64,000 nt of DNA from an uncultured Candidatus Saccharibacteria bacterium (GTDB taxonomy: Bacteria; Patescibacteriota; Minisyncoccia; Phycocordibacterales; Zambryskibacteraceae), in contig CAYUOR010000002.1 of the NCBI GenBank assembly GCA_964446535.1, positions 43,372 through 107,371 of the forward strand, in the 5' to 3' direction. How positions within the stretch are numbered: the stretch's first letter is position 1; every line of letters starts with the position of its first letter. A program made the translations under genes and the position numbers. Shown one piece after another: positions 4,618 through 63,253 of this stretch. The notes under the pieces are model-generated. The model ran no database searches. It had not been told where the DNA came from and saw only the letters and a list, made by a program, of their open reading frames with translations.

Positions 4618-6093
4618 TTATTCCACCCGATACTCGTCCCTGATCTTCTCTATCTCTTTTTCTTCTTCGGTTTGGTTTTTAGCACGAGCTTCCTGACCGA
4701 GGCGATCTAATTCTCCGGCTTCAAGGGTGTGTAACTCAAGCACTCTTTTTTCCAAATAAGTTTTATCGTTGAGTTTTGGATTTTCCAGCACTTCCGACAA
4801 AAGAATTTCGAGTATGAAACCGATTTTTGGACCAGGTCCGGAGCTTGTTAGTTTCATAATATCAGCACCATTGATTTGCAATTGTTTGACGGAAATCGGA
4901 TCACGTAAAACTTCTTCAATCATAGATTTATACTTACGTAAGCGGTACGGAGTCTCTTTTGGTCGGCCGGTGCCGACGCGATCCGAGGTGCGTAGACTAA
5001 TCAGGTCCCAAATTAGGTCTTTCCCCACGTTTCTTACTATTCGCCGGACGGCACTGGGTGTTATTTTTTCCGTATCAGAAAAAAACATGTGCCAGCGCAC
5101 AAGCTTAGTGGCCTTATCAACAGTTTCTTTTGGAAATTTCAAATTATCCATAATTTGTCTTGCCATTTTCGCCCCGACAACTTCGTGACCATAGAAGGTC
5201 CACTGATTATTTTTCCAGACCCGCGTATGCGGCTTAGCCACATCGTGAAGTAGGGCCGCCAAGCGAACATGGGGCGGAAAATTTTTCTTAGCGGCATGGT
5301 TAAGGGTGCGTAAAATATGTTCCCAGACGGTATAGGCGTGGGCTTGGTTTTGCTCCATACCTATTCCCTTCTCAAATTCTGGAGAAATAAATTTAAGCAC
5401 CCCAAGGCGGGCCGCCATATCTAGAGCCACCGCCGGCTCTTCAGAAAGAATAATTTTGATAAATTCGTCGCGAATACGTTCTCGCGATACGTGTGACAGG
5501 AGCTCTCTATTTTTAGCAATGGCGTTTTGTGTTTCAAGCTCAATGGCAAAGTTGAGCTCGCTTGCTAGACGAAGCGCTCGGAACATTCTGAGCGCATCTT
5601 CGCCGAAACGCTCTTCGGGCTTGCCTACCGTTCGAATGAGTTTCTTCGTTAGATCTTTCTCTCCACCGAAGGGATCAATCAGTGTTTCAGTTTTAATTTC
5701 ATACGCCATAGCGTTTATAGTAAAGTCGCGCCTAGCCAAATCTTCTTCAATAGTTTTTCCCCATCTGACACTATCTGGTCGACGAAAATCTGAGTAACCG
5801 GACTCGAGCCTAAAGGGAGTTATCTCTATTGTCCTTAGTGTCTCGTCTTGAGTTTCTTCGTTTACTACTCCGACTGTGCCAAACTCGTTTTCATAAAACG
5901 TTTTTGGAAAAATCTTTATGATTTCTTCCGGTGTTGCGCTGGTAGCAAGGTCCCAGTCCTTGGGCGTTCGACCAAGTATCAAGTCTCGAACACAACCGCC
6001 GACAAGAAAGTTCTCAAATCCGGCACGAGAAAGTTCTTCAGAGACCTCTCTTACTTCGTTCGGGATATTAAACAGATGTTTATCTTTCTTCAT
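4618..6093 (-). CDS. cca: CCA-adding tRNA nucleotidyltransferase / poly(A) polymerase family with HD domain
   Basis: polymerase-beta nucleotidyltransferase head GGCVRDLILGRTPKDWDLAT plus a C-terminal HD domain. Confidence 0.85.
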   Translation of the reverse strand: MKKDKHLFNIPNEVREVSEELSRAGFENFLVGGCVRDLILGRTPKDWDLATSATPEEIIKIFPKTFYENEFGTVGVVNEETQDETLRTIEITPFRLESGYSDFRRPDSVRWGKTIEEDLARRDFTINAMAYEIKTETLIDPFGGEKDLTKKLIRTVGKPEERFGEDALRMFRALRLASELNFAIELETQNAIAKNRELLSHVSRERIRDEFIKIILSEEPAVALDMAARLGVLKFISPEFEKGIGMEQNQAHAYTVWEHILRTLNHAAKKNFPPHVRLAALLHDVAKPHTRVWKNNQWTFYGHEVVGAKMARQIMDNLKFPKETVDKATKLVRWHMFFSDTEKITPSAVRRIVRNVGKDLIWDLISLRTSDRVGTGRPKETPYRLRKYKSMIEEVLRDPISVKQLQINGADIMKLTSSGPGPKIGFILEILLSEVLENPKLNDKTYLEKRVLELHTLEAGELDRLGQEARAKNQTEEEKEIEKIRDEYRVE

Positions 6094-6109: not shown

Positions 6110-6184
6110 TGGTGCCCCCAGCAGGAATCGAACCCACATCACCTGTTCCGAAGACAGGCACTTTATCCATTAAGCTATGGGGGC
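6110..6184 (-). tRNA. tRNA-Arg (anticodon TCG)
   Basis: cloverleaf on the minus strand with anticodon stem CCTGT/ACAGG and loop CTTCGGA. The T-loop TTCGATT and a 3' CCA are encoded. The T-stem contains G-U pairs. Confidence 0.6.
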
Positions 6185-6212
6185 TAAAGTAATGTTACAA
6201 GGGATTTTCGAG

Positions 6213-6284
6213 TGCGACTAGGGAGAATCGAACTCCCATCTCGTCCTTGGCAAGGACGCATTCTACCACTAAACCATAGTCGCA
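6213..6284 (-). tRNA. tRNA-Gly (anticodon GCC)
   Basis: D-arm GTTTAGTGGTAGAAT, anticodon loop TTGCCAA, T-loop TTCGATT, acceptor GCGACTA/TAGTCGC. Confidence 0.7.
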
Positions 6285-6354
6285 GGTGAGAAAGATAATA
6301 ACGTATTAGGAGAAAAAAATCGAGATTTTGAAATGACTTTATCGCATGCTAGGA

Positions 6355-6380
6355 TAGACGCTTACGGGCTGTACGAGTAC
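6355..6380 (+). repeat. tRNA acceptor-stem minihelix repeat, copy 1 (CGGGCTG-TACGAGTACAT-CAGCCCGA)
   Basis: the 7-bp stem is identical to the acceptor stems of the downstream tRNA-Pro genes, and the 11-nt loop is near-identical to copy 2. Confidence 0.4.
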
Positions 6381-6391
6381 ATCAGCCCGAT

Positions 6392-6416
6392 CACTCAGAA
6401 TAAAAAGTTATGCCAG
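6392..6416. other. Perfect palindrome AAAAGTTATGC-CA-GCATAACTTTT (possible bidirectional terminator or protein site)
   Basis: 11-bp inverted arms with A-run/T-run flanks, located between the minihelix and tRNA-Pro. Confidence 0.4.
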
Positions 6417-6427
6417 CATAACTTTTG

Positions 6428-6498
6428 TCCTTCGTTACGGGCTGTAGTACAGCGGTAGTATACACGCTTCGGGAGTGTGAGACCCGAGTTCGATTCTC
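6428..6498 (+). tRNA. tRNA-Pro (anticodon CGG)
   Basis: acceptor CGGGCTG/CAGCCCG, anticodon stem CACGC/GTGTG, loop TTCGGGA, T-arm CCGAG-TTCGATT-CTCGG. Confidence 0.75.
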
Positions 6499-6522
6499 GG
6501 CAGCCCGATGCCAAGTTTGGAA

Positions 6523-6593
6523 AAAATCTAGTCGGGCCGTAGTATATCGGTAGTATGCATGCTTTGGGAGCATGAGGGCCGAGTTCGATTCTC
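6523..6593 (+). tRNA. tRNA-Pro (anticodon TGG)
   Basis: acceptor CGGGCCG/CGGCCCG, anticodon stem CATGC/GCATG, loop TTTGGGA. Confidence 0.8.
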
Positions 6594-6605
6594 GGCGGCC
6601 CGAAA

Positions 6606-6631
6606 GAAAAAATGTACGGGCTGTATGAATA
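6606..6631 (+). repeat. tRNA acceptor-stem minihelix repeat, copy 2 (CGGGCTG-TATGAATACAT-CAGCCCGA)
   Basis: same stem as copy 1 and as the tRNA-Pro acceptor stems. Confidence 0.4.
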
Positions 6632-6679
6632 CATCAGCCCGAGCGTTCGGAATGAATATCAAAGCTCGCTTTGCTATTA

Positions 6680-6750
6680 TTCCTCACTACGGGCTGTAGT
6701 ATAACGGTAGTATCTGCCCATGGGGTGGGTAAGGCCCGGGTTCAATTCCC
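6680..6750 (+). tRNA. tRNA-Pro (anticodon GGG)
   Basis: acceptor CGGGCTG/CAGCCCG, anticodon stem TGCCC/GGGTA, loop ATGGGGT, T-arm CCGGG-TTCAATT-CCCGG. Confidence 0.7.
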
Positions 6751-6755
6751 GGCAG

Positions 6756-6826
6756 CCCGAAAGAAGCGGGATTAGTTTAGTGGCAAAACGACAGTTTTCC
6801 AAACTGTAGTTGGGAGTTCGATTCTC
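6756..6826 (+). tRNA. tRNA-Gly (anticodon TCC)
   Basis: acceptor GCGGGAT/ATCCCGC, anticodon stem ACAGT/ACTGT, loop TTTCCAA, T-loop TTCGATT. Confidence 0.8.
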
Positions 6827-6846
6827 CCATCCCGCACTTTTTCCCT

Positions 6847-42253: not shown

Positions 42254-42559
42254 ATGACAAGCGCTCGCGACAGAAAAAGAAAGAAAATAAGATCCAAGGT
42301 TTCCGGCACCGCAGACCGACCACGCCTCTCTGTGTTTAAATCAAATACTGCACTCTTTGTCCAGCTTATTGACGACGAAAAAGCGGTAACACTCGCTGCG
42401 GTTCGCGGAGCTGATCCCACAAAGGTCGGTGCCAATATCGCAAAGCTTGCTCAAACGAAGAAAATAAAGAAAGTTGTCTTTGATCGAGGGGGCTACATAT
42501 ATACCGGCAAGATTGCCAAACTTGCCGAGGCAGCCCGCGGTGCAGGACTTGAATTTTAA
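42254..42559 (+). CDS. rplR: 50S ribosomal protein L18
   Basis: L18 family conservation; operon position. Confidence 0.8.
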   Translation: MTSARDRKRKKIRSKVSGTADRPRLSVFKSNTALFVQLIDDEKAVTLAAVRGADPTKVGANIAKLAQTKKIKKVVFDRGGYIYTGKIAKLAEAARGAGLEF

Positions 42560-42563
42560 AACC

Positions 42564-43163
42564 ATGAGCGAAGAAACAAATAAAACAAATATTACTCCCA
42601 CCCCCGAAGCTGTTCCTGAGGCGGTAACGGAGACGGCTGCAAAGCCGAGAGACAGGGGAGAAAGAAACAGGAGACAACACCGAGCTCCTCGTCGTCGAGA
42701 CAGCGCTCGTACTAAGCCCGAGTTTGATCAGAAGATTATTAGCATGCGTCGAGTCGCTCGTGTTATGGCTGGCGGTAGACGATTTAATTTCTCTGTGGCG
42801 GTTGTAGCCGGTAACCGCAAAGGCAGGGTGGGCGTCGGTCAGGGCAAGGCCTCTGACACCCCTCTTGCCATAGATAAGGCCTTCCGCGATGCGAAGAAGA
42901 ATATGATTACGGTCAACACTACCAAAAATATGTCTATCCCGCACGATGTGGAAACAAAATTTGCCGCCTCCCACGTTAAAATTATGCCCGCCAGAGGCAA
43001 GGGTATTTTGGCGGGAAGTTCAGTGCGAACTGTTCTGGAACTTGCCGGATTGCGTGAAGTGGGAGCAAAGCTTTTCTCCAGATCAAAAAACACAACCAAT
43101 AATGCCAAAGCCGCCGTCAAAGCCCTCAAGATGCTTGAAACTACCAAGATAAGAAACAAATAA
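42564..43163 (+). CDS. rpsE: 30S ribosomal protein S5 (with low-complexity N-terminal extension)
   Basis: S5 dsRBD core VSMRRVARVMAGGRRFNFSVAVVAGNRKGRVGVGQGKA; start at MSEETNK. Confidence 0.85.
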   Translation: MSEETNKTNITPTPEAVPEAVTETAAKPRDRGERNRRQHRAPRRRDSARTKPEFDQKIISMRRVARVMAGGRRFNFSVAVVAGNRKGRVGVGQGKASDTPLAIDKAFRDAKKNMITVNTTKNMSIPHDVETKFAASHVKIMPARGKGILAGSSVRTVLELAGLREVGAKLFSRSKNTTNNAKAAVKALKMLETTKIRNK

Positions 43164-43168
43164 GACCA

Positions 43169-43453
43169 ATGCAACTTCACAACCTTCAGTCAAGAACAAA
43201 AAGAATTCGCTCACGACAGGTTGGTCGGGGTGGACGACGCGGAAAAACTTCTGGGCGCGGCACCAAGGGTCAAAACGCTCGTGCCGGAAGGAAGAAACGC
43301 CCTGAGATAAGGGATATAATTAAACGTATCCCGAAATTACGTGGTCGGGGTAAATCGGCCCTCAAATCCAGACGCCAGAAGCTTAAGGGAGCCGAACTTA
43401 AAGCCCATCTTGCTAAAAAGAAAACTCTAAGAAAGAAGTCGTCGGAAAAATAA
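43169..43453 (+). CDS. rplO: 50S ribosomal protein L15, short form (94 aa; no L30 gene precedes it)
   Basis: L15 N-terminal Gly/Arg-rich motif VGRGGRRGKTSGRGTKGQNARAG...LPK.RG; the C-terminal part is absent. Confidence 0.6.
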   Translation: MQLHNLQSRTKRIRSRQVGRGGRRGKTSGRGTKGQNARAGRKKRPEIRDIIKRIPKLRGRGKSALKSRRQKLKGAELKAHLAKKKTLRKKSSEK

Positions 43454-43454
43454 A

Positions 43455-44726
43455 ATGTCTAAACTCGTCGAGAAACTCAAACTCATTTTCGGAGACGAGT
43501 CGCTTCGAAAGCGAATTGTTTTTATTCTGGCAATTCTCGCGCTCTCACGCCTTTTTGCCATCATCCCGATTCCCGGTGTTGATGCTAGTCGCTTGGAAAG
43601 CCTGCTTTCTTCAAGCGAATTTCTTAACCTTTTGAATCTTTTTTCCGGCGGCGGTCTGACAAATCTTTCTGTTGTAATGCTTGGTGTCGGCCCCTATATT
43701 ACCGCCTCGATTATCATGCAGCTCCTGACCGTCATGGTGCCGAAGCTTAAGGCGCTCTACCAGGAAGAGGGCGATGCAGGTCGCCGAAAGTTTACCCAGT
43801 ATTCACGCCTCTTAACGGTTCCTCTGGCAGCCATCCAGGGTTACGCGTTTATAAAACTTCTTCAGAGTCAGGCAGTCTTGCCGCCACTTGCCCTCAACAC
43901 TCTTATCATAGATATTTTGGTTATCATTGCCGGCTCCATGCTTCTTATGTGGCTCGGTGAACTTATTACCGAATTCGGCATAGGAAACGGTGTTTCTCTT
44001 ATCATCTTTGCCGGCATCGTTGCGCAGTTACCGGCGATTTTTGGTCAAATAAGTTTTACATTTAACCCCGCCGATCTGCCGGTCTATCTAATCGGCCTAG
44101 CGGTGGCTCTGGCTGTAATCTTTGGCGTCGTAATAGTGACGGAGGCAGAACGACCCATTCCCATAACCTATGCCAAACAGGTTCGCGGTGAGCGCACCTA
44201 CGGCGGCGTTTCAACATACCTGCCCCTCCGACTGAATCAAGCGGGTGTGATTCCGATAATTTTCGCACTCTCAATCCTGATTTTCCCGCAAATGATTTTC
44301 CAGTTTCTTAGTCAGTCCAGTATTGCCTTAGTCGCGAGTGTCTCCACCTTCCTTCTTTCACTGCTTGCCAATATCTGGTTCTACACCTCGGCCTACTTTG
44401 TCCTGGTCTTTGCTTTTACCTATTTCTACACCGCCGTAACATTTGATCCAGATTCCGTCGCAACCAATCTGCAGAAATCGGGCGCTTTTGTTGCCGGTGT
44501 TCGACCCGGCACCGCCACCGCCGAATACATAGGCAAAATTTTGACCCGCCTGACCCTGGTCGGCGCCCTCTTCTTGTCTTTCATTGCTGTTCTGCCGCTT
44601 CTTATGAGATCTCTGACCGGTATCCAGTCTCTTGCCATCGGCGGTACGGCGCTCCTCATCGTTGTTTCGGTGGTGCTTGACCTTGTTAAAAAGATAAATG
44701 CGCAAGTTTCTGTGCGCGAATACTAA
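43455..44726 (+). CDS. secY: Preprotein translocase subunit SecY
   Basis: 10-TM protein with conserved SecY motifs GGG..LS, GIGNGVSLIIFAGI. Confidence 0.9.
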   Translation: MSKLVEKLKLIFGDESLRKRIVFILAILALSRLFAIIPIPGVDASRLESLLSSSEFLNLLNLFSGGGLTNLSVVMLGVGPYITASIIMQLLTVMVPKLKALYQEEGDAGRRKFTQYSRLLTVPLAAIQGYAFIKLLQSQAVLPPLALNTLIIDILVIIAGSMLLMWLGELITEFGIGNGVSLIIFAGIVAQLPAIFGQISFTFNPADLPVYLIGLAVALAVIFGVVIVTEAERPIPITYAKQVRGERTYGGVSTYLPLRLNQAGVIPIIFALSILIFPQMIFQFLSQSSIALVASVSTFLLSLLANIWFYTSAYFVLVFAFTYFYTAVTFDPDSVATNLQKSGAFVAGVRPGTATAEYIGKILTRLTLVGALFLSFIAVLPLLMRSLTGIQSLAIGGTALLIVVSVVLDLVKKINAQVSVREY

Positions 44727-50433: not shown

Positions 50434-50852
50434 TGGTGGAGGTGGCGGGAATGAGCCCGCGTCCAAGGAAATGTCTCCGACGAATCTAGCACGCCTAGAC
50501 CGATTTTTCCGCCTTACGGCGAATCTCGATTCTCAAACTATAAATCGGACAAAACATTTGAGATTCAAAGCTCTTTAGTTTGGCGCCGAGAGGAGCACTC
50601 TCTGCGTTACAATCCGACAGATAAGCACCTGAGATCTCGTATCGGATGGCGAGATAACAGGCGTTCGCTTAGGCGAGCTTACGCTCGAGCGTAGGCGAAA
50701 GCAAAGTCGTTTGCCGTAAAGTACGGCGAAACAATAGACTTTGCCCGTGCGACGATATTGTCAGCACTTAAATTTTCCAAGGGTTTAAGGAGTTCTTGGA
50801 GCTCCGCGTGCCACGGCGGGGAACTGGTTTCCATGTCGAAACTGGCACCCCC
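50434..50852 (-). ncRNA. ssrA: tmRNA (SsrA)
   Basis: 5' end GGGGGUGCCAGUUUCGACAUGG matches the tmRNA consensus GGGGCUGAUUCUGGAUUCGAC. The 3' end GGACGCGGGCUCAUUCCCGCCACCUCCACCA matches the tRNA-like T-arm/acceptor GGACGGGGGUUCAAAUCCCCCCAGCUCCACCA. There is an internal tag ORF GCA AAC GAC UUU GCU UUC GCC UAC GCU CGA GCG UAA. smpB lies immediately upstream. Confidence 0.85.
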
Positions 50853-50863
50853 GTATTTAAATC

Positions 50864-51301
50864 TTACAACGTTCTCTTCAGGTCTCTCTCGATGTCGCGT
50901 TTTTTTATTGTCTGGCGTTTGTCTATTTTCTTCTTGCCACGCGCAATTGCGATATCAAGCTTTAGAAACCTACCCTTATTATACACCGAAAGAGGCACTA
51001 TTGTCAATCCTTTAGTATTTTCCGCCTCGGCAAGCCTCTCTAATTCTTTTCCTGAAAGCAAAACTTTTCTCACCCGCTTGGCGTCATAGTCTTTCGGAGC
51101 ATTTTTCGGCTGATAGGCCGGGAGATCGGCACCCAGAAGATATGCCTCACCCCCTCGCACCGTTACGTAAGCGCCCTGAAGGTTGAGTTTGCCCGATCGG
51201 ACAGCCTTCACCTCCGTACCAAGGAGCTCCAAACCTGCCGAAAATTTTTCAAGTATTTCGTAATCAAAGCGGGCTTTTCTGTTGTCGGCAAACTGTGTCA
51301 T
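50864..51301 (-). CDS. smpB: SsrA-binding protein SmpB
   Basis: NRKARFDYEILEKFSAGLELLGTEVKAVR...GKKKIDKRQTIKKRD; the true start is the internal Met MTQFADN, and the ORF-track N-terminal extension is spurious. Confidence 0.9.
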   Translation of the reverse strand: MTQFADNRKARFDYEILEKFSAGLELLGTEVKAVRSGKLNLQGAYVTVRGGEAYLLGADLPAYQPKNAPKDYDAKRVRKVLLSGKELERLAEAENTKGLTIVPLSVYNKGRFLKLDIAIARGKKKIDKRQTIKKRDIERDLKRTL

Positions 51302-51379: not shown

Positions 51380-53311
51380 ATGAACGAACCCTCGAAACAT
51401 AAGAAGAAAATAATTATCACGAAGCCGAAGGGTCCAGGCGGCCTGCCGCCAGGCCGCGGTCTTATCGTCCAGCTTCTTCTGACCTTCCTTATTTTCTTCA
51501 CCCTCGTTAGCCTCTACTCGTCTATCACGAATAAAGATGCGGCAACAGAGGAAATACCGCTCTCGGTCCTGGCCCAAGAGATCAAGGATGGCAACATCTC
51601 CGAGATCAGAGTTGTTGGCGACAGACTCGACCTTACATTTGCCGACGGCACGAAAAAGATTTCAAAGAAGGAAGCATCAACCGCTCTCACCACCACTCTA
51701 AAAAATTATACGGTCTCCGAAGAGGCGCTTGCCAAAATAAATATTGAAGTAAAAAGCGACAGGGGGTTTCTCTATTGGTTTGCATCTCTCGCGCCGATAC
51801 TTCTTCCCATAGCATTTATCATCTTTTTCATCTGGTTTCTCTCGCGCCAGGTCAAGGGCGCGGGGATGCAGGCCTTCACCTTCGGTCAGTCTAAGGCCAG
51901 GATGACGCGCCCCGACGACAAGAGCCAGAAGGTGACATTTAGAGATGTGGCTGGCTGCAAAGAGGCGAAGGAGGAGCTTAAAGAGATTGTGGACTTTCTA
52001 AAAAATCCGAAAAAGTTCTTGGACATCGGCGCGAGGATTCCGAAGGGCATTCTCTTGATGGGTGCGCCAGGGACAGGCAAGACTCTTCTTGCTCGCGCGG
52101 TAGCGGGAGAGGCGGGAGTTTCGTTTTTCTCAATATCGGGATCGGAATTTGTCGAGATGTTTGTCGGTGTCGGCGCCTCGCGTGTTCGCGACCTCTTTGA
52201 CCTGGCGAAGAAGGCGGCCCCAGCCATTATCTTTGTTGACGAGATAGATGCGGTCGGACGAGTGCGCGGGACGGGAGTCGGCGGCGGGAATGACGAGCGC
52301 GAGCAAACTCTGAATCAGATCTTGGTGGAGCTCGACGGCTTCGAGCCGAATGAAAAGGTTATCGTTATGGCAGCGACGAATCGACCCGACGTCCTTGATC
52401 CGGCCCTCCTTCGCCCGGGGCGCTTCGACCGACGGGTGACACTCGACCTTCCCGACAGGAAAGATCGTGAAGAAATTCTCCTTATCCACGCCAGGAAAAA
52501 GCCATTCGCCGAGGATGTAAACCTACCACTCATAGCCGAGCGTACCCCCGGCTTTTCCGGTGCCGATCTCTACTCCCTTATGAACGAAGCGGCGATACTC
52601 GCCGCGCGGGAGAATAGGACGAAAGTATCGCAATACGATCTTATCCGCTCTATTGAGAAGGTGATGCTCGGCCCGGAACGCAGAAGCCACATCCTTTCAA
52701 AGAAGGAGAAAGAGCTCACGGCTTATCACGAAGCGGGGCACGCCGTGGTCGCATCCGTTCTGCCTTATGCCGATCCTGTGCATAAGATTTCTATAATTTC
52801 TCGCGGTCGCGCGGCAGGTTATACCCTGAAACTTCCTCTGGAAGACAGAAAGCTGCAGTCAAAGAAAGAATTTCTCGACGACATCGCGACAGCTCTCGGC
52901 GGCTACGTCGTGGAGAAAACTATTTTCCGCGACATCACGACGGGACCCTCAAACGACCTTCAGGTCGCAACAGCGCGAGCTCGCGACATGGTGACGAAGT
53001 TCGGCATGTCGGAGAAGATGGGTCCTGTAGCGCTCGAGGGTCCTGGCGGCAAACCACTATTCGGCGTCGGGGTAAGCGACAAAGATTACTCGGAGAAGGT
53101 CGGAGCGATGATAGATGCCGAAGTCTCTCTCATCATGAATGACGCGATGAGAAAGGTGGAGAAAATCATCAAGGATCACAGAAAAGCGCTTGACGCTATC
53201 GCCGGACGCTTGATAGAGACCGAGACAATAGAGCAAAAAGAGTTTGAAGAAATTTTGATAGCAAACGGTATTACGCCAAAGAAGAAAAAAGATATAGAAC
53301 ACCAAGCATAA
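51380..53311 (+). CDS. ftsH: ATP-dependent zinc metalloprotease FtsH
   Basis: AAA Walker [18 protein letters not shown] zinc motif; two N-terminal TM helices. Confidence 0.9.
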
Positions 53312-53608: not shown

Positions 53609-54205
53609 CTATATACCTAAATTATTCACAGGCGGCATGGGCTTACCCGTTGCCTTTATTCCCGTGTGGTGCGTGGCAGACATTTGCATGATAACGTCTT
53701 TGACGTGCTCTGGGTGTGGCACCTGGTGAAATATAAACTCTCTTTCGGATGAGGCGGTTTGAACCGTAACATTGCCGAACTTAAAAAATGTTTCTATGAA
53801 CCCTCGGGTGTGGGCGTTAACATCCTGAATACGGTTTGCAGAAAGTTCTGAAACCTCACGATTAAAGAATCCGTGTTGGTCGCTATCTATGATTCTTTTA
53901 TTTGTGATAAGGACGGTCGACAGGCTATATAGCGTGATGGCGTGAAAAGCAGAGAGCCAGAGCGCCATATACCAAAGGCTAGCGACGAAAAGAAAGGCCG
54001 GAAACCAGCCACTATTTAAAATAAGAGAATAGAAAATAAGACCAACAAAAATCGGCACGAGAGCGGCAAAGCTGAGAAGCCCGAGGCGGATATAGATGGT
54101 CAGCGGGTGTCGGCGTAGAAGTGTTATTACTTCTTCACCCTCCTTTTGGCCCACGAAGGAATTTAGAGATTCAGAAAACAGCGAGAAAAATGGGTGGAGC
54201 TTCAT
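53609..54205 (-). CDS. Membrane protein with bacterial PH (bPH_2/YdbT-like) domain
   Basis: two TM helices followed by a PH-like domain (ITNKRII...ELS..RIQDV). Confidence 0.5.
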   Translation of the reverse strand: MKLHPFFSLFSESLNSFVGQKEGEEVITLLRRHPLTIYIRLGLLSFAALVPIFVGLIFYSLILNSGWFPAFLFVASLWYMALWLSAFHAITLYSLSTVLITNKRIIDSDQHGFFNREVSELSANRIQDVNAHTRGFIETFFKFGNVTVQTASSEREFIFHQVPHPEHVKDVIMQMSATHHTGIKATGKPMPPVNNLGI

Positions 54206-54441
54206 GGCAGGAGTTTTGTAATATCAATCTTTAGAAACATTGCAACCGCAATACCGGAAAAGATAAGCGAACCTCCGAGGAAAATTGCTGCAAATTTCTT
54301 CGGCTGGGTGCCGATGCCGAAGCGTGTCAGGTGGTAGAGGATAATAAAGGCGAATATCCAGTAGACGAAAAAAACTCCAACAATCAGGACATTAAAGATA
54401 ATCCCGAGGAACTGCATAAATTGTTTCCTTAATTCTAGCAC
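54202..54441 (-). CDS. Small 2-TM membrane protein (hypothetical)
   Basis: 79 aa; overlaps the upstream gene stop by 4 nt. Confidence 0.35.
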   Translation of the reverse strand: MLELRKQFMQFLGIIFNVLIVGVFFVYWIFAFIILYHLTRFGIGTQPKKFAAIFLGGSLIFSGIAVAMFLKIDITKLLP

Positions 54442-54452
54442 TAAAAAGAAAA

Positions 54453-54473
54453 GCCCCGATGTAACATCGGGGC
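54453..54473 (-). terminator. Terminator hairpin GCCCCGATGTAACATCGGGGC (U-run on minus strand)
   Basis: same hairpin family as 48974 and 53320. Confidence 0.6.
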
Positions 54474-54492
54474 CTGAACATTGAACTTGTGA

Positions 54493-54876
54493 TTATTGAC
54501 CTCTACCCTTGAATGGCAGTGGTCGCAAGAGGCCGGCGTCGTCGAGGTCCATGAGCTCCTGGTTGCGCCGGAGCTTCTTGCCTTCCGCTTCGTACTCGGC
54601 TTCTTCCGAAAAGAGCGGCGTACCGCCACGAGGCGGCGTTTGAGCAGCTCTCCGCTTGAGAATCTTCCTCTCCGCCACATCGAGGTGGCTCGCCACGAGC
54701 ATGGCGACGACGGCAAGAAAGATTCCGAGAACGACGAGTTCTCCGGCGAGCGCCTTCTTCTCCGTGAAGATGATGAGGTAGAAGCTTATTGACAGAAAGA
54801 GGATACCGATGATACTCGAGACGCCGAGGACCATGCGCATGAAGCGAAAGTACGGCGTGTTCATTTCCCTGATCAC
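54493..54876 (-). CDS. Membrane protein with charged C-terminal tail (hypothetical)
   Basis: two TM helices; Arg/Glu-rich tail. Confidence 0.4.
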   Translation of the reverse strand: MIREMNTPYFRFMRMVLGVSSIIGILFLSISFYLIIFTEKKALAGELVVLGIFLAVVAMLVASHLDVAERKILKRRAAQTPPRGGTPLFSEEAEYEAEGKKLRRNQELMDLDDAGLLRPLPFKGRGQ

Positions 54877-54957
54877 AAAGACCTCCTTTTTGAGCTGAAA
54901 AAGTCTCCTGCAACTATACTATTTTAATCCCACAAAGTCAAGAGATATGAAAACTAG

Positions 54958-55031
54958 TCCGCCCGCCACGATTCGAACGTGGGACCCCCGAGGTATAAGC
55001 TCGATGCTCTAACCAGCTGAGCTACGGGCGG
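54958..55031 (-). tRNA. tRNA-Ile with anticodon TAT (UAU), C1-G72 acceptor pair
   Basis: D-arm GCTCAGCTGGTTAGAGC (Ile/Ala/Met type), anticodon stem TCGAG/CTCGG, loop CTTATAC, T-arm CCACG-TTCGAAT-CGTGG, acceptor CCGCCCG/CGGGCGG. Confidence 0.65.
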
Positions 55032-55053
55032 AAAGATTTAATATATCACAGTG

Positions 55054-57198
55054 TTATTCAAAGTGAATTTTACGCTCACTAGAATCCAAGCGCTCCTTAA
55101 GTAGCGGAAATTTATTAAGCCCGGGATCAAGTTCAACAAGCCTTGTTGCTTCTGCTCGCGCCGCCTCAACCATCTTTAAATTCTTAATCGCTTCCATCCC
55201 GACATCCGAGATACCCCACTGTCTCATCCCCGCGAGCTCTCCCGCCCCGCGCTGTTTAAGGTCGTACTCGGCGAGTTCGAACCCATTTTTGGCGGAGACT
55301 AGAGCTTTCAGCCGCTCACGCGCCTTGTCTCCCCGGCTTTCGGTGAAGACGAAACAATATGCCTGGTGATTGGAGCGGATGACTCGACCGCGGAGCTGGT
55401 GGAGCTGGGCGAGACCGAAGCGCTCCGCACCTTCTATAATAATGAGCGAAGCGTTTTCTACATTGACGCCCACTTCGACGACTGAGGTGGCGACAAGGAT
55501 ATCCAATTTTTTATTTTTAAACTCCAACATTATCTTTTCTTTCTCGGCGGGCTTCATCTTGCTGTGAAGAATACCTATTTCGTACTCACCGAAGACTTCT
55601 TTTTTCAGGCGCTTCGCCTCTTCCTTTACGGATTTGGCAAGGACCGCAAGTTCTTTTGTCGGGTCGGGTTCGTCTATACGCGGGCAGATAACGTAGAGCT
55701 GCCGTCCAGCTTTTAATTCTTCACGTACTTTCTCGTATGCTTGCAGCCGCTTATCCGGAGCGACAACTTCCGTGATAATTTTTTTCCTACCTTCCGGCAT
55801 CTCGTCTATGAGAGAGAGGTCGAGGTCGCCGTAGAGTGTGAGGGCGAGGGTTCTCGGGATGGGAGTCGCGGTCATAGAGAGCAGGTGCGGAGTAAGCTCG
55901 TTTTTTGTCACAAGCTTTTGCCTTTGCGCCGTGCCGAAGCGGTGCTGTTCGTCAACGATGACAAATGCCAGGTGTTTAAACTTAACCGACTTTTGAATTA
56001 GCGCGTGAGTGCCGATAAGGACCGAGATTTCGCCCGAGGCTACCCACTTAAGAAGCTGGGCTCGAGATATATCTGTGGCGCCATCGGGATTAATCTTCGA
56101 TGGGAATTTTTTACAACCACTTCCTGTGATGAGAGCAATATTTATCGGCAAGTGGGAGAAGTATTTTATAAACGAGTCAAAGTGCTGTTGAGCGAGTATT
56201 TCTGTCGGTGCCATGTAGGCCGACTGGAGGGTGCCTGACTGCGCAGGCAGGCCGAATTCATTAAGAGGGCGGGAGGTGGTGACGGCGTAGACCGCAGTAG
56301 CGGCAACAGCGGTCTTGCCCGAGCCGACGTCCCCTTCGAGAAGGCGCGACATCGGGTGTCCGCGGCGGAAATCGAGAAGGACGGTTTCTATGGCGCGTCT
56401 CTGTGCTGCTGTTGCCTTGAAAGGAAATCTCGAAATAAAAGTTTCTACATCCTCAGGTTTCTTGTCTATGACGAAGGCGGCGCGCTCTTTAAACTCGTGC
56501 CTAAATTTTTGTCTCTCAAGCTGGATGAAAAATATTTCTTCAAAGGCGAAGCGCTTGCGCGCCGCTTCGGCGTGCTCGAGCCTCTTCGGTGCGTGGATGT
56601 ATATGAGCGAAGTGCGCAGGTCGGGGAGATTGTACTTTTTCAAAATCTCGTCTGGCAGGGGGTCAACAAGGGGGTCCAGGACCCTGCTTGCGAAAGCCGT
56701 CTGCACTTTATGATAAAGCCAGTTGGAAGTAACACCGCGAGTCTCGGGGTAAACGGGGTAGAGAGAGTGCGCGGCAGTTTTTGTAAAAAGGTCGGGAGCT
56801 GTTTCGATTTTCGGATTTGAAAAGTAGAGAGAGCCGTTCCGCTCGGAAACCTTGCCCTCAACACGGACGCGGGAATTCTCGGCAAGCATTTTTGCCAAGT
56901 AGGCTTGGTAGAACCAGACGATTTTTATTTTGCCCGTAGCATCTTCGACAAAGCCCTCTGCCATGGGAATTTTTTTCCTGAAAGCTCTGCTCGTTTTTAG
57001 TTTGCTGATTTGTCCGAAGACGACAGCTGTTTCACCCTTCTTCAGATCGACAATATTGGCAATCTCCGCCGAGTCGCCATAGTAGCGGGGGAAGTAGTAG
57101 AGAAGGTCACGAACCGTCTCGAGCCCTAGGCGCTTGAGGGCGGAGAGCTGCCTCGGCAGTATTCGGAAGACGTCGGAGAGTTTATCACTCGGATGCAT
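55054..57198 (-). CDS. recG: ATP-dependent DNA helicase RecG
   Basis: wedge domain plus SF2 helicase motifs GDVGSGKT, DEQHRFG, and a TRG-type motif in the C-terminus. Confidence 0.9.
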   Translation of the reverse strand: MHPSDKLSDVFRILPRQLSALKRLGLETVRDLLYYFPRYYGDSAEIANIVDLKKGETAVVFGQISKLKTSRAFRKKIPMAEGFVEDATGKIKIVWFYQAYLAKMLAENSRVRVEGKVSERNGSLYFSNPKIETAPDLFTKTAAHSLYPVYPETRGVTSNWLYHKVQTAFASRVLDPLVDPLPDEILKKYNLPDLRTSLIYIHAPKRLEHAEAARKRFAFEEIFFIQLERQKFRHEFKERAAFVIDKKPEDVETFISRFPFKATAAQRRAIETVLLDFRRGHPMSRLLEGDVGSGKTAVAATAVYAVTTSRPLNEFGLPAQSGTLQSAYMAPTEILAQQHFDSFIKYFSHLPINIALITGSGCKKFPSKINPDGATDISRAQLLKWVASGEISVLIGTHALIQKSVKFKHLAFVIVDEQHRFGTAQRQKLVTKNELTPHLLSMTATPIPRTLALTLYGDLDLSLIDEMPEGRKKIITEVVAPDKRLQAYEKVREELKAGRQLYVICPRIDEPDPTKELAVLAKSVKEEAKRLKKEVFGEYEIGILHSKMKPAEKEKIMLEFKNKKLDILVATSVVEVGVNVENASLIIIEGAERFGLAQLHQLRGRVIRSNHQAYCFVFTESRGDKARERLKALVSAKNGFELAEYDLKQRGAGELAGMRQWGISDVGMEAIKNLKMVEAARAEATRLVELDPGLNKFPLLKERLDSSERKIHFE

Positions 57199-60999: not shown

Positions 61000-62703
61000 A
61001 TGAAGAAAACATCAAACGAGAAGGCACTACTCTCAATCAGCGAAGTTTCAAGCATTTTTGGTATTCACCAAGACACGCTTCGTAATTGGGAGAAAAAAGG
61101 ACTTATTACTCCACTCCGTGTTGGTCCACGAAAAGATCGAAAGTACAAGCCGGAAGACATTGAGCGTATTGCGAATGATAAAAGTATTTTCAAGGGGCTT
61201 GATGAACCTCTCGATGATGGAAAAATGAATCTCACCCAACTCAAGCAATTCCTTTGGAGAAGTGCCGATATTTTGCGTGGAAAGATAGACAGTTCTGATT
61301 ACAAAAAATATATATTTGGACTCCTTTTCTACAAACGCATCAGTGATGTGTGGGACGAAGAATATAAAAAAGTTCTTGAGGAATATCATGACGAAGAAAT
61401 TGCTCGCGCAGATCACAATCACCGTTTCCAAGTTCCGAAAGATTGCCGATGGGAAGTAATACAAAAACAAGCAGAGGGTATCGGGCAGAAACTCAATGAA
61501 ATTTTTGATAAACTCACAAACGCAAACAGTCCCAAGCTCGACAAGATTTTTGATGATCTAGATTTTGCCAACAAGGATAAATTTCCAAATACTACTCTAC
61601 AAAATTTAATAAACCATTTTTCAAAACATAATTTTGGAGACAACTACATCAGCTCTGATCTTCTTGGGGATGCATACGAATATCTCATTGAGCAATTTGC
61701 GGCGGATGCGGGTAAAAAAGGCGGAGAATTTTACACTCCGCGTGAGGTTGAGCGGGTAATAATAAACATTTTAAAACCTCACGAGAAAGACCATATCTAC
61801 GATATGGCAGTTGGCTCTGGCGGTTTCCTACTCGAGGCGTATCACTATCTGCGAGAACAAGCTGGAGAAAAGAAAGCTCGCTCACTCTACCTTTACGGGC
61901 AAGAAATAAACATTGGTACATACGCAATTGCAAAAATTAACATGTTTCTCCACGGGCTTGATAGTGCAGACATTCAGCGCGGAGATACTCTTGCCGATCC
62001 AAAATTTTTGAATCCTGACGGATCGCTAAAAACCTATGATATCTGTGTTGCAAATCCGCCCTACTCCATTAGTGAATGGGAAGATCAGATTTTTGCCGCG
62101 AATAAACACGGAATTCTTGATGGTTATGAAATGCCTCCGGCAAAAAAAGCCGATTACGCCTTTGTGCTCCACATGGTGAAGTCCATGAATAAAAACGGTC
62201 GTGCGGGAATTGTGCTTCCTCACGGGGTACTTTTCCGAGGTGGCGCTGAAGGACGAATCCGTGAGCAACTGATAAAAAATGATCTCATAGAGACCGTCAT
62301 CGCTCTCCCCGCAAAGCTTTTCTATGGCACAGGTATTCCGGCGGCGATCGTGATATTTAACAAGAACAAACCAGAAGCTCACAAGAATAAAATTCTAATT
62401 ATAGACGCGGAAAAAGATTTTGAAGAAGGTAAAAACCAGAATCGCCTTCGCAAAAAAGATATTGAAAAAATTGTTTCGGCTTTTGAGAGTTACCGCGATG
62501 TTGAGAAATATGCTCGCATCGTGGGTATCAAAGAGTTGGAAGAAAATGAGTTCAATCTCAATGTCCGTCGCTATGTAGAAAATGGTGATGAGGAGGAAGT
62601 TGTAGATGTGAAAACAGTTTGGAGTGAATTGAAAGAAATTGAGAAGGAGCGCGAAGTGATTGATAAGAAGGCCGTCAATTATTTAAAAGAATTAAAATAT
62701 TAA
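61000..62703 (+). CDS. hsdM: Type I restriction-modification N6-adenine DNA methyltransferase subunit HsdM with N-terminal MerR/excisionase-type HTH domain
   Basis: HTH LLSISEVSSIFGIHQDTLRNWEKKGLITP; HsdM_N LKQFLWRSADILRG; the AdoMet motif follows within 61800-61830 (frame uncertain); catalytic NPPYS. Confidence 0.85.
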   Translation: MKKTSNEKALLSISEVSSIFGIHQDTLRNWEKKGLITPLRVGPRKDRKYKPEDIERIANDKSIFKGLDEPLDDGKMNLTQLKQFLWRSADILRGKIDSSDYKKYIFGLLFYKRISDVWDEEYKKVLEEYHDEEIARADHNHRFQVPKDCRWEVIQKQAEGIGQKLNEIFDKLTNANSPKLDKIFDDLDFANKDKFPNTTLQNLINHFSKHNFGDNYISSDLLGDAYEYLIEQFAADAGKKGGEFYTPREVERVIINILKPHEKDHIYDMAVGSGGFLLEAYHYLREQAGEKKARSLYLYGQEINIGTYAIAKINMFLHGLDSADIQRGDTLADPKFLNPDGSLKTYDICVANPPYSISEWEDQIFAANKHGILDGYEMPPAKKADYAFVLHMVKSMNKNGRAGIVLPHGVLFRGGAEGRIREQLIKNDLIETVIALPAKLFYGTGIPAAIVIFNKNKPEAHKNKILIIDAEKDFEEGKNQNRLRKKDIEKIVSAFESYRDVEKYARIVGIKELEENEFNLNVRRYVENGDEEEVVDVKTVWSELKEIEKEREVIDKKAVNYLKELKY

Positions 62704-62707
62704 ATGT

Positions 62708-63253
62708 ATGGAGAAATATATAATTTTTGAAGGAAATATTGACCAACAGGCAACACTTAGACTTGTTAACGCAATTCAAAATGCAATAAACCAAGCACCT
62801 CAGGCAACAAAGGTAACTATAATATTTTCCTCTCTTGGGGGAAGTATATATGATGGTTTCCTCTTGGCTTCTTTTATCCAAAACTCAAGAGTTCCGATTG
62901 CTATTCACGCTGTAAATCATATTGATTCAATTGCAAATGTTGTCTATTTATCTGTAAAAGAAAGAACAGCAGAATCTCATACGAAGTTTTATATGCATGG
63001 CGCCTCAACACAAGGAAATTTCGACGAGAAAGCACTTAAAGAACAACTTTCTTCGATTAAGACCAATAATAGTCGCATAGCTCACTTTGTGACTGCAAAT
63101 TCGGGCATTAGTCTCAAGAAAGTGAGATCAATGATGGAAAGCGGAACAACGATTTCAGCTCAAGAAGCTTTAAAGTATAAAATTGTTCAAAAAATAATGC
63201 ATCGTGAAGTTCCTCCAGATGCAATTAGAGAAGAAATAATTTATGTCAATTAA
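62708..63253 (+). CDS. ClpP-like (S14 family fold) serine peptidase paralog embedded in the Type I R-M operon
   Basis: ClpP-like order of motifs: FSSLGGSIYDG (compare INSPGG.V..G), candidate Ser in HIDSIA, candidate His in YMHGAS, C-terminal ISAQEALKYKIVQKIM (compare SA.EA..YGL.D.I). Starts 4 nt after the hsdM stop, and the hsdS start overlaps its end by 11 nt. Confidence 0.55.
   Translation: MEKYIIFEGNIDQQATLRLVNAIQNAINQAPQATKVTIIFSSLGGSIYDGFLLASFIQNSRVPIAIHAVNHIDSIANVVYLSVKERTAESHTKFYMHGASTQGNFDEKALKEQLSSIKTNNSRIAHFVTANSGISLKKVRSMMESGTTISAQEALKYKIVQKIMHREVPPDAIREEIIYVN

Follow-up and report, generated by a model that had tools for sequence, protein, structure and literature searches.

A tRNA-Ile gene with an encoded UAU anticodon is conserved in a Parcubacteria lineage that uses AUA as a frequent isoleucine codon

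We identified a tRNA-Ile gene with a genomically encoded UAU anticodon in a 64,000-nucleotide stretch of DNA from an uncultured bacterium (the whole of this stretch is referred to below as the window). The favored reading, to which we assign a probability of about 0.85, is that the gene specifies a functional elongator tRNA-Ile(UAU) which reads AUA directly in a Parcubacteria host where AUA is a frequent isoleucine codon. Textbooks and papers up to 2026 describe lysidine (TilS) as an essential feature of nearly all bacteria, to which tRNA-Ile(UAU) is a rare exception.

The gene and the features that bear on it are listed in Table 1. The original prediction had placed it correctly at 54958-55031 but had not given its strand, which is the minus strand, and the D-arm, anticodon-loop and acceptor-stem strings that it quoted all agreed with the sequence. 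Read from 55031 to 54958, the gene is CCGCCCG TA GCTC AGCTGGTTA GAGC A TCGAG CTTATAC CTCGG GGGTC CCACG TTCGAAT CGTGG CGGGCGG A. ARAGORN called a tRNA-Ile with anticodon tat at 54957-55031 (minus strand), and Rfam RF00005 matched 54958-55031 on the same strand over the full model (1-71) with 64.2 bits (E = 1.2e-11; gathering score, 29). The anticodon occupies 54995-54997 within a 7-nt loop, CTTATAC, in which it is preceded by U33 and followed by a purine (A37). No CCA is encoded (the bases following A73 are CTAG) and a CCA-adding enzyme is therefore needed; a gene for such an enzyme is present in the window. A minimum free energy fold of this tRNA alone gave the acceptor and T arms only, and for this reason it is the covariance model and the comparison of homologues that support a cloverleaf. 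A putative promoter, identified by consensus match only, overlaps the 3' end of recG and stops 8 nt short of tRNA position 1 on its upstream side; five promoter-like sites were found in the region versus 0.7 expected.

Table 1. Positions of the tRNA-Ile(UAU) gene, its parts and associated genes in the window
Feature	Position	Strand	Remarks
tRNA-Ile(UAU) gene	54958..55031	-	74 nt; positions 1-73 plus one extra D-loop nt
Anticodon loop C32-U33-U34-A35-U36-A37-C38	54993..54999	-	Read from the sequence
Acceptor stem, 5' strand CCGCCCG	55025..55031	-	C1 = 55031; pairs with 54959-54965
Acceptor stem, 3' strand CGGGCGG, and discriminator A73	54958..54965	-	G72 = 54959; A73 = 54958
Putative promoter-like site	55040..55067	-	TTCACT, 16 nt spacer, TGnTATATT; consensus match only
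recG	55054..57198	-	Pfam RecG_wedge, DEAD, Helicase_C; upstream of the tRNA, synteny anchor
ftsH	51380..53311	+	Pfam; preceded by divergent smpB and tmRNA, not by tilS/hpt
CCA-adding enzyme gene	4618..6093	-	Pfam PolyA_pol head, PolyA_pol_RNAbd, HD, tRNA_NucTran2_2

We then examined covariation in an alignment of 56 distinct tRNA-Ile(UAU) sequences, taken from recG-linked metagenome loci and other related loci. In the cloverleaf, 99.9% of cells were paired across these homologues and 16 of 21 stem pairs were changed on both sides, with compensatory changes at all five pairs of the anticodon stem. The covariation score was 0.731 versus 0.172 for shuffled alignments, none of 500 shuffles scored as high, and slid controls reached at most 0.16. 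The loop sequence CTTATA was invariant in 56/56 and was followed by C or T, so that UAU was unchanged throughout. C2-G71, U12-A23 and A73 were each invariant (56/56), and C4-G69 was present in 53 of the 56; C29-G41 was not conserved. A73, C4-G69 and U12-A23 are reportedly isoleucine identity elements for E. coli IleRS (Nureki et al. 1994). These patterns show that the tRNA-Ile(UAU) gene is functional and that purifying selection acts on it. That it is a real tRNA with a genomically encoded UAU, as originally predicted, was borne out by ARAGORN, Rfam RF00005 and covariation alike. To the extent that charging can be read from the anticodon, the identity nucleotides and the meaning of the codon (see below), it is a working isoleucine tRNA gene.

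The C1-G72 pair, which had been singled out as uncommon for an elongator tRNA, is indeed present in the window gene, but no special meaning is evident. Among the 56 distinct sequences, pair 1-72 was C-G in 26, G-C in 26 and A-U in 4, so that C1-G72 is one neutral state among several at a position that covaries freely, with no evident special role. The origin of the tRNA was also considered. [quoted passage not shown] Pairwise identities probing descent from Ile1(GAU) or Ile2(CAU) were all 58-71%, the E. coli sequences in these comparisons being approximate, and did not discriminate between the two.

Six other tRNA genes form a cluster at 6110-6837 (Arg-TCG, Gly-GCC, Pro-CGG, Pro-TGG, Pro-GGG and Gly-TCC) that adjoins the CCA-adding enzyme gene; within it, CCA is encoded by tRNA-Arg only. 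All three tRNA-Pro genes have C1-G72, which is usual for bacterial tRNA-Pro. An unusual tRNA was seen in three of the metagenome loci, where ARAGORN detected tRNA-Ser(ACT) with A34 and a long variable arm (L184:2703-2792, L189:3683-3772 and L192:250-339, all on the plus strand). Each of these adjoins an opposite-strand tRNA-Ser(GCT), and only the one in L189 passed the Rfam tRNA threshold (53.4 bits). In bacteria, an anticodon with A34 is seldom encountered except in tRNA-Arg(ACG).

AUA was a common codon in the window. In 77 non-overlapping ORFs it accounted for 345 of 18,900 codons (18.3 per 1000, 25% of Ile codons), a count that confirmed the heavy use of AUA which had previously been noted. 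Its frequency was 15 per 1000 within the operon of ribosomal proteins, compared with 4-5 per 1000 in EF-G and EF-Tu.

The window has a G+C content of 41-52% and includes a str-S10-spc ribosomal-protein cluster with EF-G, EF-Tu and SecY, as well as a type IV pilus-like secretion ATPase and platform protein. The nearest named relatives of its FtsH (79-94% identical) belong to Candidatus Zambryskibacteria, Giovannonibacteria, Doudnabacteria, the 'Parcubacteria group' and Minisyncoccia. These FtsH homologues, together with the titles of the records, place the host lineage in Parcubacteria (Patescibacteria/CPR). Saccharibacteria was considered as the host lineage and rejected, since the FtsH homologues indicate Parcubacteria.

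Several other genes of the window deserve mention. A 94-aa ORF (43169-43453, plus strand) is the sole ORF between the S5 gene (42474-43163) and secY (43455-44726), and it gave no Pfam match and, in BLAST comparisons with L30 and L15 of E. coli, no similarity to either. L30 is reported to be absent from CPR bacteria. A lone ORF at this place fits such an absence and suggests that the 94-aa protein may be a short or divergent L15. The interval 61000-63253 (plus strand) encodes HsdM, a type I restriction-modification methylase that begins with a MerR/HTH domain, and after it a ClpP-like ORF (62708-63253, plus strand), which is a second, divergent member of this family in addition to the canonical clpP at 1970-2545.

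The tRNA gene was found at a recurrent chromosomal position. A 42-nt segment comprising the D-arm and anticodon arm had exact matches in five GTDB species genomes, whose deposited titles are Paceibacterota (one), 'uncultured Candidatus Saccharibacteria' (three) and 'uncultured bacterium' (one). In all five loci recG was beside the tRNA, and in both loci that were long enough ftsH was present too. The three 'Saccharibacteria'-titled records had the same smpB-ftsH-tRNA-recG synteny as the window, with recG 63-66% identical; the only one of these loci to include ftsH (L123) encoded a protein 67% identical to that of the window. The order smpB, ftsH, DUF378, bPH_2, variable small ORFs, tRNA-Ile(tat) and recG recurred in five named MAGs (GCA_964357635.1, GCA_049651785.1, GCA_001780675.1, GCA_001779915.1 and GCA_964367465.1) and in several metagenome contigs. 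Scanning of JGI metagenomes with the window RecG yielded 80 loci in which recG was 61-79% identical. tRNA-Ile(tat) was located downstream of recG in 70 of them (within 1 kb in 58), sharing its strand in 34 cases and facing the other way in 36, and nine of the ten loci lacking it stopped no more than 625 nt past recG. Judging from this distribution, tRNA-Ile(UAU) is clade-wide, kept in essentially every relative for which enough sequence is available, and is an old, vertically inherited and selectively maintained part of the translation apparatus of the lineage.

The surroundings of the gene vary in other respects. Between the tRNA and the bPH_2/DUF378/ftsH block, the window has small ORFs without a family match (54202-54913, minus strand). 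The equivalent stretch in four relatives (L126, L128, L130 and L214) contained different small ORFs in each, again with no family matches, and in L214 the stretch includes an ORF with a reverse-transcriptase domain. Since these small ORFs differ from one relative to another, tRNA-Ile(UAU) borders a variable region. On the other side of ftsH, tmRNA (96 bits) and smpB, together at 50434-51300 on the minus strand, lie directly upstream and are divergent from it, and this smpB-ftsH junction recurs in most of the Parcubacteria relatives examined that have sequence upstream of ftsH.

We further searched for components of the lysidine pathway. Position 34 was T in the window gene and in 56/56 homologues, rather than the C34 that characterizes tRNA-Ile2(CAU), and hence none of these sequences offers a C34 substrate for TilS. 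No tRNA(CAU) was present among the seven window tRNAs detected by ARAGORN, and a CAT anticodon was found in 0 of 115 tRNAs in the 80 recG-related loci, which are largely one syntenic neighborhood. A CAU version of the tRNA-Ile(UAU) body did not occur in 241 million metagenome records. Neither the window nor the 80 recG loci contained an ORF with the SGGxDS PP-loop motif, and tblastn with E. coli TilS (E <= 10) gave no match in the window and 94 related loci (1.16 Mb, mostly the same region). In Firmicutes and Actinobacteria, and in many Gram-positive bacteria, tilS usually adjoins ftsH. No PF01171 (tilS) neighbor was seen in nine ftsH contexts, among them two in which FtsH is more divergent (63% and 56% identical), and smpB preceded ftsH in all contexts of closer relatives that were read. 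No ileS was found in the window or related loci, nor was there a KMSKS-bearing ORF of at least 750 aa.

Long FtsH-containing proteins were checked as candidate TilS fusions and rejected, as they proved to be tandem-AAA or intein-containing FtsH. Five FtsH representatives from outside the window (P0124, P0128, P0137, P0140 and P0142; 1030-1085 aa) carried an intein in the AAA domain. They were up to 69% identical to the window FtsH, and a LAGLIDADG homing-endonuclease domain was present in four of the five. Other FtsH homologues of 790-1180 aa had two or three tandem AAA modules.

Because the loci searched are largely one region, the step from these results to whole genomes is an extrapolation. 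We consider it somewhat more likely than not that tilS is absent from the genomes of this lineage, and the original suggestion that an encoded UAU signals loss of the lysidine pathway is thus a claim of moderate probability. By analogy with Mycoplasma mobile, tRNA-Ile(UAU) would then probably be the sole AUA decoder, in a lineage that has neither TilS nor tRNA-Ile2(CAU). The broader proposal, that all Parcubacteria lack both and depend on a U34 tRNA-Ile alone for AUA, would be given slightly better than even odds.

The main competing explanation is that tRNA-Ile(UAU) is a redundant isoacceptor, with tilS and tRNA-Ile2(CAU) encoded elsewhere in the genome and AUA read by both LAU and UAU tRNAs. 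There is precedent for it, as a UAU tRNA and tilS coexist in Lactobacillus casei, Cyanothece and Ferrimonas (PMC3575796), and our reading covers 64 kb of the genome plus one syntenic neighborhood of its relatives. However, those occurrences are sporadic and species-level, whereas the tRNA described here is conserved clade-wide. Its presence in essentially every relative examined, where the anticodon never varies and changes in the stems are compensated, would be unexpected for a dispensable duplicate in very small genomes; in addition, AUA is a major codon, no tilS lies beside ftsH in the contexts read, and no CAU twin appeared in metagenomes. Redundancy is thus unlikely in genomes of this size that all keep the UAU tRNA and use AUA heavily, although it is the alternative that we take most seriously.

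A second explanation is very improbable, namely that the gene is defunct (a pseudogene) or was recently brought in by a phage or mobile element and plays no core part. Viral contigs do contain abundant tRNA-Ile(UAU) genes with the same D-arm (at least 120 matches), and relatives differ in what separates the tRNA from ftsH. Yet none of the 120 viral loci listed had a tRNA at least 62/74 identical to that of the window or had relatives of recG or ftsH, the position beside recG is kept where recG is 61-79% identical to the window protein, and covariation is strong. A mis-parsed loop and a pseudogene, both raised with the original prediction, were ruled out by ARAGORN, Rfam, covariation, and the use and meaning of AUA. 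tRNA-Ile(UAU) with the same pattern of D-arm and loop is very common in IMG/VR contigs (at least 120, L001-L120), and among the viral matches listed none closely resembled the Parcubacteria tRNA-Ile(UAU).

The meaning of the codon was assessed from alignments with E. coli K-12 orthologs, made for 23 conserved proteins of the window and covering 69 AUA positions. The E. coli residue at these positions was Ile in 23 cases, Val in 21, Leu in 9, Thr in 6 and Met in 1, and the 9 others were scattered over further residues or gaps. This profile was similar to those of AUU (n = 180; Ile 80, Val 36, Leu 24) and AUC, and differed from that of AUG, at which Met was found in 46 of 114 positions. Since AUA aligned to Ile, Val and Leu and not to Met, the alignments indicate that AUA is read as isoleucine in this host. 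Codon reassignment, in which the UAU tRNA would carry an amino acid other than Ile (such as Met, which is the case in many mitochondria), might be entertained because the ARAGORN isotype is taken from the anticodon alone and some CPR lineages recode codons, but with I/V/L in 53 of the 69 positions, Met in a single one, and A73, C4-G69 and U12-A23 conserved, it is ruled out for practical purposes.

[quoted passage not shown] A37 would probably be t6A, by analogy with M. mobile, and the window's own CCA-adding enzyme would supply the 3' CCA post-transcriptionally. The IleRS of the lineage would be expected to accept U34, an adaptation marked in known systems by Arg or Lys at the position of E. 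coli W905 or by a eukaryote-type enzyme. Misreading of AUG may be limited by the ribosome, by competition from tRNA-Met, or by some modification of U34, possibilities that have been discussed for M. mobile.

The closest described system is the tRNA-Ile2(UAU) of M. mobile, for which AUA decoding was reported by Taniguchi et al. in 2013 (PMC3575796), with the same type in M. haemofelis and M. suis. The two share an elongator tRNA-Ile with an encoded UAU, A37, a small genome and frequent AUA codons, and lysidine-free reading of AUA would be common to both, as we infer for the present lineage. In M. mobile, the absence of tilS, an unmodified U34, the adaptation of IleRS through Arg865 and ribosomal discrimination between AUA and AUG were shown experimentally (PMC3575796). 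M. mobile belongs to Tenericutes and the trait there is that of a single species, while the window tRNA belongs to Patescibacteria and to a broad lineage. In Bifidobacterium and Neorickettsia, a 'tRNA-Ile3(UAU)' likewise has an encoded UAU and replaces tRNA-Ile2(CAU) across whole genera; both use a eukaryote-type IleRS, and their tRNA and that of the window presumably arose independently. Compared with the canonical system of tRNA-Ile2(CAU) and TilS, AUA has the same meaning and A73, C4-G69 and A37 are shared, but position 34 is T and not C in 56/56 sequences and no tilS was seen locally.

The literature describes nine species in three clades, published surveys, including PMC3575796, list about 9-19 bacterial species with tRNA-Ile(UAU), and a 2026 preprint still refers to 'rare cases' in bacteria. 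The original description of a UAU tRNA-Ile as rare thus holds for the published literature and fails within this Parcubacteria lineage, where the tRNA is universal. A set of 371 unique tDNA-Ile(TAT) metagenome sequences without taxonomic or genomic context was reported in 2013 (PMC3575796). They probably overlap the family described here, which is now tied to Parcubacteria and a fixed locus. Our literature search found no published link of CPR, Patescibacteria or Parcubacteria to lysidine, tilS or tRNA-Ile(UAU). In view of these comparisons, the window tRNA is a clade-wide addition to the known tRNA-Ile(UAU) type, and no new mechanism is involved.

The findings show that a whole uncultured lineage keeps tRNA-Ile(UAU) at a fixed chromosomal position and uses AUA heavily, so that a decoding solution called rare in bacteria is the norm in these Parcubacteria. 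One practical consequence concerns annotation pipelines, in which a missing Ile2(CAU) in these genomes should not count as incompleteness. If tilS is truly absent, decoding of AUA in the absence of lysidine would be far more widespread than is now known, and TilS would serve poorly in these organisms as a universal marker or as a drug target. The lineage would then also offer naturally occurring variants of IleRS and the ribosome with which to study the exclusion of U34 from AUG; unplaced metagenomic tDNA-Ile(TAT) sequences would also probably gain a taxonomic home. If the loss extends to all Parcubacteria, TilS-independent decoding of AUA would be ancient and clade-defining in a major part of bacterial diversity, a very large uncultured radiation, instead of an oddity of a few reduced genomes, and would imply a co-adapted recognition of the anticodon by IleRS together with a ribosomal or modification barrier against misreading of AUG.
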